Part shown: piece by piece, positions 31,926 through 37,150 of the stretch
How positions within the stretch are numbered: position 1 is the stretch's first letter
Layout of the letters: each line of letters begins with the position of its first letter
DNA from: Escherichia coli
GTDB lineage: Bacteria > Pseudomonadota > Gammaproteobacteria > Enterobacterales > Enterobacteriaceae
Length of the DNA: 64,000 nucleotides
Assembly (NCBI RefSeq): GCF_051903065.1
Contig: NZ_CP178438.1
Reading direction: 5' to 3' (one strand)
Translations under genes and position numbers: made by a program
Notes under the pieces: model-generated
Database searches by the model: none
What the model saw: only the letters and a program-made list of their open reading frames with translations
What the model was told of the DNA's origin: nothing

Positions 31926-32883
31926 AGCACTACTGAACGCGGGACGTCAGACGTTAATGCTGGAATTGCAGGAAGCAAGCCGTTTACCGGAACGTCTGGG
32001 CAATGATTTTGTTCGCGCCGCCAATATCATCCTGCACTGCGAAGGCAAAGTGGTGGTTTCGGGAATTGGCAAATCGGGCCACATTGGTAAGAAAATCGCC
32101 GCAACGCTTGCCAGTACTGGCACACCGGCTTTTTTTGTCCATCCGGCAGAAGCACTACACGGCGATCTGGGGATGATCGAAAGCCGCGATGTGATGCTGT
32201 TTATTTCTTACTCCGGTGGCGCGAAGGAACTGGATCTGATTATTCCGCGTCTGGAAGATAAATCTATCGCGCTGCTGGCGATGACCGGCAAACCGACGTC
32301 ACCGCTGGGCCTGGCGGCGAAAGCGGTGCTGGATATCTCCGTAGAACGCGAAGCCTGCCCGATGCACCTTGCGCCGACCTCCAGCACCGTCAATACCCTG
32401 ATGATGGGTGACGCGCTGGCGATGGCGGTCATGCAGGCGCGCGGATTTAATGAAGAAGATTTTGCCCGCTCCCACCCAGCCGGGGCACTGGGCGCTCGCT
32501 TGCTGAATAAAGTGCATCATCTGATGCGCCGTGATGACGCTATCCCGCAGGTAGCGTTAACCGCCAGCGTGATGGATGCGATGCTGGAACTCAGCCGCAC
32601 CGGTCTGGGGCTGGTGGCGGTATGTGACGCTCAACAACAGGTACAAGGCGTCTTTACCGACGGCGATTTACGTCGCTGGCTGGTTGGCGGCGGCGCACTC
32701 ACCACGCCAGTTAATGAAGCGATGACGGTCGGCGGCACCACGTTGCAATCGCAAAGTCGCGCCATCGACGCCAAAGAGATCCTGATGAAGCGCAAAATCA
32801 CTGCCGCACCGGTGGTAGATGAAAACGGCAAACTCGTCGGCGCAATTAACCTGCAGGATTTCTATCAGGCCGGGATTATTTAA
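31918..32883 (+). CDS. gutQ: D-arabinose 5-phosphate isomerase (SIS + CBS domains)
   Basis: 321 aa; SIS motif GIGKSG, tandem CBS. Confidence 0.95.
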
Positions 32884-34394
32884 TCCTTCAATCCCAGACG
32901 TTTCGCCAGCCGATGCAGGTTGGCGACGTCGGTTTCCAGCATTCGCGCGCAGGCTGCCCAGTTGTGATGATTTTGTGCCAGTGCCTGACGAATAGTTTCA
33001 CGCTGGAACGCTTCTGTCGCTTCACGCAGGTTTTGCTTAACAACGGGCACCGCCGCCGCTTCTGGCGGCGGTAACGTCACCTCAGGAAAAGCAAAATGTT
33101 GCGCCTCAAGAATCACTTCATCGCCGCTGCGGGTGGCTCTCGCCAGCACTACCGCCCGATGAATAGCATGTTCCAGTTCGCGCACGTTCCCCGGAAAACG
33201 ATAGTGTTGCAGTAAATTTCGCGCTCCGGCACTTAATACCACGCGGGAGAGCCCCTGCCGCAAACGACACTGCTCGCAGAAATACCCCGCCAGCAGAATG
33301 ACATCATCGCCCCGCTCACGCAGCGGCGGCACCGAAAGTGGAAACACGCTCAGGCGGTGGAACAAGTCAGCGCGAAATCGCCCTGCCAGCACCTCTTCGC
33401 GTAAATCGCGGTTAGTCGCCGCCAGCACGCGCACATCGACCCGCAAACTACGGTCATCGCCAACGCGCTGAATATCGCCATACTGCAACACCCTCAGCAG
33501 CTTGGCCTGCAATGCCAACGACAACTCGCCGATCTCATCCAGAAACAGCGTGCCGTTATCCGCCATTTCAAACTTCCCACTGCGGTTACTGATTGCGCCA
33601 GTAAACGCTCCTTTCACATGCCCGAACAACTCACTTTCCGCCACACTTTCCGGCAGTGCGGCACAGTTGAGATAGACCAGCGGATTCACCGCCCGTGGCG
33701 AGGCCTCATGAATCGCTTTCGCCACCAGCTCCTTACCGGTTCCCGTCTCACCGCTGATCAGGACGTTGAGATCGGACGCCGCCACAATCTCAATCTCTTT
33801 TTTCAGTTGCGTCATGCCTGGCGACAGACCGATCATCTGCGTCTGTTTCACCGCTTCAAATGGAGCGGCATCGCCCGGCAGCATATTCTGGCTTTCCAGT
33901 TGCTCAATCAGCAACGCATTGCTTAACGCTCCCGCCGCCAGCGCGGCAATCAGGCGTAACTCTTCGTCACTGAAAACATCGAACTGATCGGGCTGCATTC
34001 CGTCGAGCGTCAATGCGCCGATCAGGTTTTGTCCGGCAAACAACGGCAGACCAACGCAGGCGTGGACCTTCAGACTCTCCTGTCCGGGAATCAAACCATC
34101 ATAGGGATCGGGCAATTCGCTGTCTGCGGGAAAGCGCACCACGTCCCCGGCGCGGGCAATCGCTTCCAGCCGTGGATGCCCTTCCAGCGCAAAGCGTCTA
34201 CCGAGTACATCCTTTGCCAGACCGTCGATGGCAAGCGGAATAAACTGCCGCGAATCGTAACGTAGCAACGCAGACGCATCGCACTCCAGCACCTGACGCA
34301 GCGTGGTGATCAGGCGCTGAAAACGATCCTGATGACCAATCCCACGCTGCAATTCGATGGCGATATTCGCCAGCACATCAACGGAAAAACTCAT
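32880..34394 (-). CDS. norR: NO-responsive sigma54 enhancer-binding protein
   Basis: ORF 32880..34469; start trimmed to [18 protein letters not shown] (504 aa) so the CDS does not cover its own binding sites; GAF + AAA+ ([14 protein letters not shown]) + HTH. Confidence 0.9.
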
Positions 34395-34406
34395 CTTTGC
34401 CTCACT

Positions 34407-34462
34407 GTCAATTTGACTATAGATATTGTCATATTGACCATTTGATTGATAGTCATTTTGAC
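34407..34462. promoter_or_regulatory. Three NorR binding sites (GT-N7-AC)
   Basis: gtcaatttgac, gtcatattgac, gtcattttgac in the norR-norV intergenic region. Confidence 0.85.
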
Positions 34463-34517
34463 TACTCATTAATGAGCATAATTCTATTTATATAGTAAAA
34501 ACAATCAGATAAAAAAC

Positions 34518-34533
34518 TGGCACGCAATCTGCA
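34518..34533 (+). promoter_or_regulatory. Sigma54 promoter of norVW
   Basis: tggcacgcaatctgca (-24 GG / -12 GC spacing) about 50 bp upstream of norV. Confidence 0.8.
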
Positions 34534-34580
34534 ATTAGCAAGACATCTTTTTAGAACACGCTGAATAAATTGAGGTTGCT

Positions 34581-36020
34581 ATGTCTATTGTGGTGAAAAA
34601 TAACATTCATTGGGTGGGTCAACGTGACTGGGAAGTGCGTGATTTTCACGGTACAGAATATAAAACGCTGCGCGGCAGCAGCTACAACAGCTACCTCATC
34701 CGCGAAGAAAAAAACGTGCTGATCGACACCGTCGACCATAAATTCAGCCGCGAATTTGTGCAGAACCTGCGTAATGAAATCGATCTGGCGGATATCGATT
34801 ACATCGTGATTAACCATGCAGAAGAGGACCACGCCGGGGCGCTGACCGAACTGATGGCACAAATTCCCGATACGCCGATCTACTGTACAGCCAACGCTAT
34901 CGACTCGATAAATGGTCATCACCATCATCCGGAGTGGAATTTTAATGTGGTGAAAACTGGCGACACGCTGGATATCGGCAACGGCAAACAGCTCATTTTT
35001 GTCGAAACACCAATGCTGCACTGGCCGGACAGCATGATGACTTACCTGACAGGCGACGCGGTGCTGTTCAGTAACGATGCTTTCGGTCAGCACTACTGCG
35101 ACGAGCATCTGTTCAACGATGAAGTGGATCAGACGGAGCTTTTTGAGCAGTGCCAGCGTTACTACGCCAATATCCTTACGCCGTTCAGCCGCCTGGTAAC
35201 GCCGAAAATTACCGAGATCCTCGGCTTTAACTTACCAGTCGATATGATAGCGACCTCTCACGGCGTGGTATGGCGCGATAACCCGACGCAAATTGTCGAG
35301 CTGTACCTGAAATGGGCGGCTGATTATCAGGAAGACAGAATCACCATTTTCTACGACACCATGTCGAATAACACCCGCATGATGGCTGACGCTATCGCCC
35401 AGGGAATTGCGGAAACCGACCCACGCGTGGCGGTGAAAATTTTCAACGTCGCCCGAAGCGATAAAAACGAAATCCTGACCAATGTCTTCCGCTCAAAAGG
35501 CGTGCTGGTCGGCACTTCGACGATGAATAACGTGATGATGCCGAAAATCGCCGGGCTGGTGGAGGAGATGACCGGATTACGCTTCCGTAACAAACGCGCC
35601 AGTGCTTTCGGCTCTCACGGCTGGAGCGGCGGTGCGGTGGATCGTCTTTCCACGCGCCTGCAGGATGCGGGTTTCGAAATGTCGCTTAGCCTGAAAGCGA
35701 AATGGCGACCAGACCAGGACGCTCTGGAGTTATGCCGTGAACACGGTCGCGAAATCGCCCGTCAGTGGGCGCTCGCGCCGCTGCCGCAGAGCACGGTGAA
35801 TGCGGTAGTTAAAGAAGAAACCTCTGCCACCACGACGGCTGACCTCGGCCCACGGATGCAGTGCAGCGTCTGCCAGTGGATTTACGATCCGGCAAAAGGC
35901 GAGCCAATGCAGGACGTTGCGCCAGGAACGCCGTGGAGTGAAGTCCCGGATAACTTCCTCTGCCCAGAATGCTCCCTCGGCAAAGACGTCTTTGAAGAAC
36001 TGGCATCGGAGGCAAAATGA
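34581..36020 (+). CDS. norV: Anaerobic NO reductase flavorubredoxin
   Basis: 479 aa; metallo-beta-lactamase-like + flavodoxin + C-terminal rubredoxin (CxxC...CPxC). Confidence 0.95.
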
Positions 36021-37150
36021 GTAACGGCATTGTGATCATCGGTTCGGGCTTCGCCGCCCGCCAACTGGTGAAAAATATTCGCAAACAGGACGCAACTATT
36101 CCATTAACCCTGATTGCCGCCGACAGCATGGATGAGTACAACAAACCTGACCTCAGCCATGTTATCAGTCAGGGGCAACGTGCCGATGACCTTACCCGCC
36201 AGACGGCGGGTGAATTTGCCGAGCAGTTTACTCTGCGCCTGTTTCCGCAAACCTGGGTGACGGATATCGATGCCGAAGCCCATGTGGTGAAAAGCCAGAA
36301 TAATCAGTGGCAATACGACAAGTTAGTGCTGGCAACCGGTGCCAGCGCCTTTGTCCCGCCTGTGCCTGGGCGTGAGTTAATGCTGACGTTAAATAGTCAG
36401 CAAGAGTATCGCGCCTGTGAAACGCAACTGCGGGATGCCCGACGCGTGTTGATTGTTGGCGGTGGTTTGATTGGTAGCGAACTGGCGATGGATTTTTGTC
36501 GTGCAGGCAAAGCGGTCACGCTCATCGACAACGCTGCCAGTATTCTGGCGTCGTTAATGCCACCGGAAGTAAGCAGCCGCTTGCAGCATCGGTTGACGGA
36601 GATGGGCGTTCATCTGCTGTTGAAATCTCAGTTGCAGGGGCTGGAAAAAACGGATTCTGGCATTCTGGCAACGCTGGACCGCCAGCGTAGTATCGAAGTG
36701 GATGCGGTAATTGCCGCCACCGGACTGCGCCCGGAAACCGCCCTGGCACGACGCGCCGGGCTGACGATTAATCGCGGCGTTTGCGTCGATAGTTATCTGC
36801 AAACCAGTAATGCCGATATTTACGCGCTGGGCGATTGCGCGGAAATTAACGGTCAGGTATTGCCGTTCCTCCAGCCGATTCAACTTAGCGCGATGGTGCT
36901 GGCAAAAAATCTTCTCGGCAATAACACGCCGCTGAAACTACCGGCGATGCTGGTGAAAATCAAAACGCCGGAATTACCGCTGCATCTGGCAGGCGAAACC
37001 CAGCGTCAGGATTTACGTTGGCAGATTAATACCGAACGCCAGGGAATGGTGGCGCGCGGCGTTGACGATGCTGACCAGCTTCGCGCCTTTGTGGTAAGTG
37101 AGGATCGGATGAAAGAGGCATTTGGATTGTTGAAAACGTTGCCGGTGTAG
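36017..37150 (+). CDS. norW: NADH:flavorubredoxin reductase
   Basis: 377 aa; FAD/NAD(P) GxGxxG motifs; overlaps norV stop. Confidence 0.95.

Follow-up and report, generated by a model that had tools for sequence, protein, structure and literature searches.

An internal methionine codon as the very probable start of norR in Escherichia coli, and phased NorR sites as the source of its over-long reading frame

Introduction

The closest described relative of the locus analysed here is the norR (b2709, ygaA)/norVW region of Escherichia coli K-12 (PMC2831303). In K-12, norV is known to be activated in response to NO, and NorR to bind in vivo (PMC2831303). NorR binds three sites and oligomerises, and when NO nitrosylates the iron centre of its GAF domain, sigma54-RNA polymerase is activated at the norV promoter (PMC2831303, PMC2941729). 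All three NorR sites are needed for activation of norV (Tucker et al., 2010; PMC2831303), and IHF binds between the NorR sites and the norV start (PMC2831303). NorR regulates norR as well as norVW (PMC8249747).

Related NorR regulons occur in other proteobacteria. The Salmonella norVW, Ralstonia norAB and Pseudomonas and Vibrio hmp systems share with the present locus tandem GT-N7-AC sites before a sigma54 promoter and a norR gene divergent from its target, but outside the enterobacteria the target genes of NorR differ (Rodionov et al., 2005; PMC1274295).

The norR gene also has an annotation history. The exact 529-aa K-12 sequence was deposited as 'putative ORF 529AA; ORF529 [Escherichia coli K-12]', and other records, including that of strain H617, carry it under the name 'NorR'. 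In public protein collections this K-12 form is found on 48 contigs, whereas the 504-aa form is on at least 1,000. The ORF529 record resembles other over-extended 'longest ORF' calls and is the exact K-12 equivalent of the long reading frame described below; unlike that record, current RefSeq/PGAP annotation has the corrected start. The divergent norR/norVW control region of E. coli is already well characterised, and current references annotate norR correctly. Here we ask which start codon the sequence itself favours. The sequence features, conservation, coding signature and stop-codon alleles come from our own analysis. For the binding of NorR to its three sites, the binding of sigma54 and the position of the norR transcript start we rely on the literature.

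Results

The window is the whole stretch of E. coli DNA that was analysed, 64,000 nucleotides in length. Direct reading of the sequence identified positions 34200-34800 as the divergent norR/norVW control region; Rfam found no RNA family in this interval. The locus is built as in K-12: the gene order is gutQ, norR, norV, norW, the three GT-N7-AC sites are spaced by 24 and 21 bp, the sigma54 promoter is identical, norR has the 504-aa start, and the intergenic region is 186 bp long. It differs from K-12 at NorR site 2, which is GTCATATTGAC in the window and GTCATATCGAC in K-12, and by three further substitutions in the A+T-rich spacer. The genes are as follows.

32880-34394, minus strand: norR coding sequence, 504 aa plus stop, with GAF, sigma54-interaction AAA+ and predicted C-terminal DNA-binding regions (RefSeq, NF003451, Pfam)
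34581-36020, plus strand: norV (flavorubredoxin, 479 aa), intact (ORF list and RefSeq annotation)
36017-37150, plus strand: norW (NADH:flavorubredoxin reductase, 377 aa), overlapping norV by 4 bp (ORF list and RefSeq annotation)

The norV/norW overlap (ATGA, 36017-36020) suggests translational coupling. At the other end of norR, gutQ (plus strand) and norR (minus strand) overlap tail to tail by 4 bp (32880-32883). A 185-aa reading frame runs antisense to the beginning of norV (34551-35108, minus strand), and nothing points to its being a gene.

A 451-bp query (34250-34700) matched 5,425 of 5,426 complete E. coli genomes; its identity was 100% to strain ECNB21-M121 and 97.8% to K-12. At least 99% identity over these positions was reached in only four of the 5,426 genomes, the others lying at 95-99%. 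The window therefore comes from a sparsely sampled lineage, of which the best match, ECNB21-M121, is a meat isolate.

The longest norR reading frame runs on the minus strand from an ATG at 34469 to 32880 and encodes 529 aa. The preliminary description had it reaching 25 codons upstream to 34469, and these coordinates agree with the ORF list. An internal ATG in this frame, at 34394 (plus-strand CAT, 34392-34394), would give a protein of 504 aa. Pfam placed GAF at residues 47-179 and Sigma54_activat at residues 212-378 of the 529-aa translation and also detected AAA_lid_14; no separate Pfam HTH model was found at E<=0.001, and the C-terminus of NorR is covered by the NCBIfam profile described below. 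The GAFTGA motif lies at residues 262-267 of the 504-aa protein. The iron-centre and repression residues of the GAF domain listed in PMC2941729 (R75, Y98, D99, H111, C113 and R81, in 504-aa numbering) are all present.

Several results place the start of norR at 34394. RefSeq/PGAP annotates this codon as the start in all five E. coli genomes inspected (ECNB21-M121, K-12 BW2952, AR_0013, AF3 and PMV-1), and the equivalent ATG followed by a conserved M[SRG]FS is found in 80 of 80 Enterobacteriaceae loci. The NCBIfam NorR equivalog NF003451 (512 positions) scored 824 bits versus a curated cutoff of 476, which marks the protein as a full-length member of the NorR family. The alignment pairs its positions 2-511 with residues 26-528 of the 529-aa frame, and therefore the N-terminus of the family is the internal methionine at 34394. 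The ten residue labels used in mutant work of the Dixon laboratory (R75, R81, Y98, D99, H111, C113, F264, G266, S292 and Q304; PMC2941729) all fit the 504-aa numbering. Thus, the NO-responsive NorR that was studied in vivo and in vitro was numbered from the 34394 start.

The 34394 codon is preceded by a Shine-Dalgarno element.

34400-34403, minus strand: norR Shine-Dalgarno GAGG, 5 nt before ATG 34394 (duplex energy and conservation)

The duplex energy with the 3' end of 16S rRNA is -6.5 kcal/mol before 34394, versus +0.2 kcal/mol for the best pairing before 34469. Across 78 Enterobacteriaceae species the main norR start has a mean of -6.3 kcal/mol, and the four GAGG columns are conserved in 72/72 (G), 72/72 (A), 72/72 (G) and 71/72 (G) aligned species. 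At codon -25, 17 of the 78 species have an ATG or GTG in an open frame, and in all 17 the Shine-Dalgarno energy is about zero.

These observations also bear on a start further downstream. The first codons of norR (MSFSVDV) include an in-frame GTG at codon 7 that could in principle serve for initiation, but the universal ATG with its M[SRG]FS, the conserved GAGG 5 nt before it, the family profile that begins at this methionine and the codon-type conservation that sets in directly past 34394 all speak against it. We consider such a start exceedingly improbable.

The stretch between the two candidate start codons lacks the signature of coding DNA.

34395-34469, minus strand: spurious, non-coding 25-codon upstream extension of the norR frame (flat entropy, stop codons, no Shine-Dalgarno, upstream of the mapped transcript start)

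Among 76 non-redundant Enterobacteriaceae loci, column entropy at the three codon positions was 0.33, 0.16 and 1.04 in the first 29 codons after 34394, compared with 0.75, 0.68 and 0.67 in the extension. Third-position variation thus begins only past 34394, and the extension shows no excess of it. The frame of the extension is open in 44 of 78 species and contains a stop in the other 34. Stops also segregate within E. coli. Using 35-nt allele-specific queries of the 5,426 complete genomes, we found a TCA>TAA stop allele in 623, a double-stop allele in seven and the open, window-type allele in 4,121; extension stops are therefore present in at least 630 of these genomes. Strain AR_0013 has two stops in the extension, and PMV-1 has a stop there and yet an intact annotated 504-aa norR.

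The upstream start codon is not conserved either. ATG or GTG occupies codon -25 in only 17 of 78 species, so that an open frame headed by a start codon is not a shared feature of these species, and in close relatives the codon is replaced by GTG (two Escherichia genomes) or ATT (E. albertii). The recurrence of ATG or GTG at exactly this codon is somewhat above what one might expect, with columns that are only about 50% conserved. We rejected it as a real alternative start because of this low conservation and because a Shine-Dalgarno element precedes it in none of the 17 species.

The open frame is accounted for by the NorR binding sites that it contains.

34407-34417, no strand assigned: NorR enhancer site 3 (GTCAATTTGAC), nearest norR; pattern match, core invariant in 72 species
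34428-34438, no strand assigned: NorR enhancer site 2 (GTCATATTGAC; GTCATATCGAC in K-12); pattern match and published site
34452-34462, no strand assigned: NorR enhancer site 1 (GTCATTTTGAC), nearest the norV promoter; pattern match

The preliminary description had placed three GT-N7-AC sites at 34407-34462, inside the long frame, and the pattern matches fall exactly there. The pattern GTCANNNTGAC has eight matches in the 64-kb window versus 0.88 expected from shuffles, and three matches within 56 bp are far beyond chance. The three inverted repeats upstream of the norVW promoter coincide with the published sites. The 21-bp site-1 oligonucleotide GATAGTCATTTTGACTACTCA of Tucker et al. (2010; PMC2831303) equals the window sequence at 34452-62, and site 3 is identical to the target of their Site3 primers. 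Taken together, their mutagenic primers (PMC2831303) match window sites 1-3 with one natural substitution, a T in site 2 where K-12 has C.

The arrangement of the sites is conserved along with their sequence. Of the Enterobacteriaceae loci that have three or more sites, 76 in all, 75 show the 24- and 21-bp spacing, and in 70 loci the proximal site begins 23 nt before the norR ATG. With first bases at -68, -44 and -23 relative to the ATG, the three sites are in one codon phase, each read as xGT CAn nnT GAC. Because they share this phase, each site amounts to four codons that cannot be stops. Of the 25 extension codons, 14 are stop-proof in this way: 12 lie in the three NorR sites and two in the GAGG Shine-Dalgarno element (GAG-Gnn). 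An unconstrained 25-codon stretch of the local composition stays open with P of about 0.12, so the extension is not statistically remarkable; the stop-proof codons raise the expected chance of an open frame to about 0.40, and 44/78 was observed. The long norR frame is thus a geometric by-product of phased NorR sites.

The same phasing bears on the case for a 529-aa NorR. If NorR began at 34469, its own binding sites would lie inside its coding sequence. This version of the protein has the longest frame, and it has been deposited for K-12 ('ORF529') and several other strains (the 48 contigs mentioned above). Its translated extension looks conserved across genera, with a recurring SQND...QYD...QND pseudo-peptide. 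This conservation arises from the phased DNA sites, not from conservation of a protein, and the sites explain it fully. The extension also shows no codon periodicity, has no Shine-Dalgarno element before 34469, is not covered by NF003451 and begins upstream of the mapped transcript start. Stops interrupt it in 34 of the 78 species and, within E. coli, in at least 630 genomes whose norR is intact. As the position of the transcript start and the stop alleles contradict it, we give a 529-aa NorR as the regular product next to no credence.

Transcript mapping agrees with the internal start. The start codon lies 18 nt from the norR transcript start in MG1655 (RegulonDB 10.5) and 20 nt in O157:H7 EDL933 (Cappable-seq) (PMC10469882, Table S5 sheet 3), and only this one norR start was reported within the 250 bp screened under eight culture conditions (PMC10469882). 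The figures are quoted from a secondary table and stem from cultures without NO exposure or anaerobiosis. Judged by the sequence identity of the stretch, the start would fall in the window as follows.

34412-34414, minus strand: approximate norR transcript start, 18-20 nt upstream of ATG 34394, inside site 3

This is 55-57 nt downstream of the 34469 ATG, and therefore the 34469 ATG is not on that transcript. In other datasets, a Cappable-seq supplement for K-12 has no norR or norV entry by name, and a supplement of transcript starts in Shigella M90T lists norR only as an annotation record.

A second, upstream norR promoter may be used under other conditions. A two-isoform model would have NorR made mostly from 34394 and, in strains whose extension is open, a 529-aa form translated from a scarce longer mRNA in some conditions. 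An open frame with ATG at codon -25 is indeed present in the window and in K-12, as well as in about 4,100 E. coli genomes and 12 further species, and the transcript maps were made without NO stress. Against this, no species has a ribosome-binding site at codon -25, the -25 start itself varies among close relatives, where it is GTG, ATT or missing, the extension evolves as non-coding DNA, and a single start was seen within 250 bp in eight conditions. We regard two isoforms as very unlikely. The more specific proposal that, in the open-frame majority of E. coli lineages, a rare longer norR transcript (perhaps nitrosative or anaerobic) yields a minor 529-aa NorR from 34469 seems to us more doubtful again; if it were true, the coding sequence of that isoform would contain NorR's own operator sites.

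Returning to the internal start, initiation at 34394 is supported by seven independent lines of evidence that agree: annotation, family profile, Shine-Dalgarno, substitution pattern, stops, transcript start and residue numbering. The preliminary description had proposed this methionine as the start of a 504-aa NorR, and the proposal holds on each of these counts. None of the evidence gathered favours initiation at 34469, and all of it favours 34394. A literature search turned up neither start-site ribosome profiling of norR nor N-terminal proteomics of its product, and the TRAINSPOTTER N-terminomics supplements have no NorR entry.

A possible norR promoter lies within the site cluster.

34423-34431, minus strand: candidate extended -10 element of the norR promoter (TGACAATAT), which we infer from sequence; overlaps the promoter-side half of site 2

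Among 72 species, the TG of TGACAATAT is conserved in 71-72, the A at position 2 in 67 and the T at position 6 in 68. These key bases are kept though most of them fall outside the GT-N7-AC cores. The element is a weak one (CAATAT, 34423-34428) and ends 8-10 nt upstream of the mapped start, at the long end of the usual range. A simple sigma70 -35/-10 scan found no promoter on the minus strand. On the plus strand it gave one hit, at 34426-34453, which we dismissed as chance level (1.2 hits expected). A second -10 candidate for norR, TATAGT (34416-34421, minus strand), was rejected because just 1-3 nt separate its end from the mapped start.

Hutchings and co-workers reportedly found in 2002 that NorR negatively autoregulates norR. 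We propose that the norR promoter lies inside the enhancer cluster, so that NorR occupying sites 2 and 3 would sit over both the -10 region and the start point, and bound NorR would also limit its own synthesis. Such occlusion is in keeping with the reported regulation of norR by its own product (PMC8249747).

On the norV side, the remaining elements follow the K-12 pattern.

34463-34517, no strand assigned: A+T-rich spacer between the enhancers and the sigma54 promoter; IHF-binding region as reported in the literature
34518-34533, plus strand: sigma54 (-24/-12) promoter of norVW, TGGCAC-N5-CTGCA, TGGCACGCAATCTGCA, read directly

Direct reading bore out the sigma54 promoter of norV that the preliminary description had given at 34518-34533, with the norV ATG at 34581; position 34580, where that description ended, is the last intergenic base before this ATG. 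The element TGGCACGCAATCTGCA has the -24 GG and -12 GC and is identical to the norV site defined by ChIP-seq. In the sigma54 ChIP-seq study of Bonocora et al. (2015; PMC4591121), the 17-mer CTGGCACGCAATCTGCA is site OS25, assigned to norV in K-12 with a listed distance of 37, and the window carries CTGGCACGCAATCTGCA unchanged. If the listed distance runs from the transcript start to the ATG, norV transcription would begin near 34544. Within 34463-34517 the IHF consensus WATCARNNNNTTR has no match at <=1 mismatch; near-matches occur only between sites 1 and 2, outside the spacer in which IHF binding is reported. The sequence AAAAACAA at 34497-34504 is 80-90% conserved. By analogy with K-12, NorR would assemble on the three sites and activate the sigma54 promoter at 34518-34533.

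Discussion

We are highly confident that NorR is a 504-aa protein starting at ATG 34394, and that the 75 nt upstream of it, open in the same frame, are non-coding regulatory DNA. This leaves the biology of the locus unchanged, as the 504-aa NorR, its three enhancer sites and the sigma54 norV promoter were already established. The practical value is that of a small cautionary case for gene callers and comparative pipelines. At norR, a longest-ORF rule swallows the regulatory region, and this has happened in deposited records. The remark in the preliminary description that the locus is a useful check for automated annotation is borne out by public databases, which contain the 529-aa 'ORF529 [E. 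coli K-12]' along with several 'NorR' entries of that length. For the window's own sequence, the protein collection holds the 504-aa form on 189 contigs and lacks the 529-aa form.

Because the sites are spaced by multiples of three in one phase, protein-level conservation alone would mislead at this locus. Each of four approaches resolves the norR start: codon-position variation, within-species stop alleles, Shine-Dalgarno conservation, and transcript start data.

Two further observations concern the NorR sites. A fourth exact match to GTCANNNTGAC (GTCAACGTGAC) lies at 34618-34628, inside norV codons 13-16, and about 23 of 78 species have it in the equivalent position; it probably reflects coding conservation rather than a NorR site. 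E. coli AF3 (NZ_OZ547117.1), a blood isolate, has lost 45 bp between site 3 and site 1 (equivalent to window 34407-34451) and retains a single GT-N7-AC site, an arrangement unique among the 5,426 complete genomes. As all three sites are required (PMC2831303), AF3 is predicted to be unable to induce norVW.
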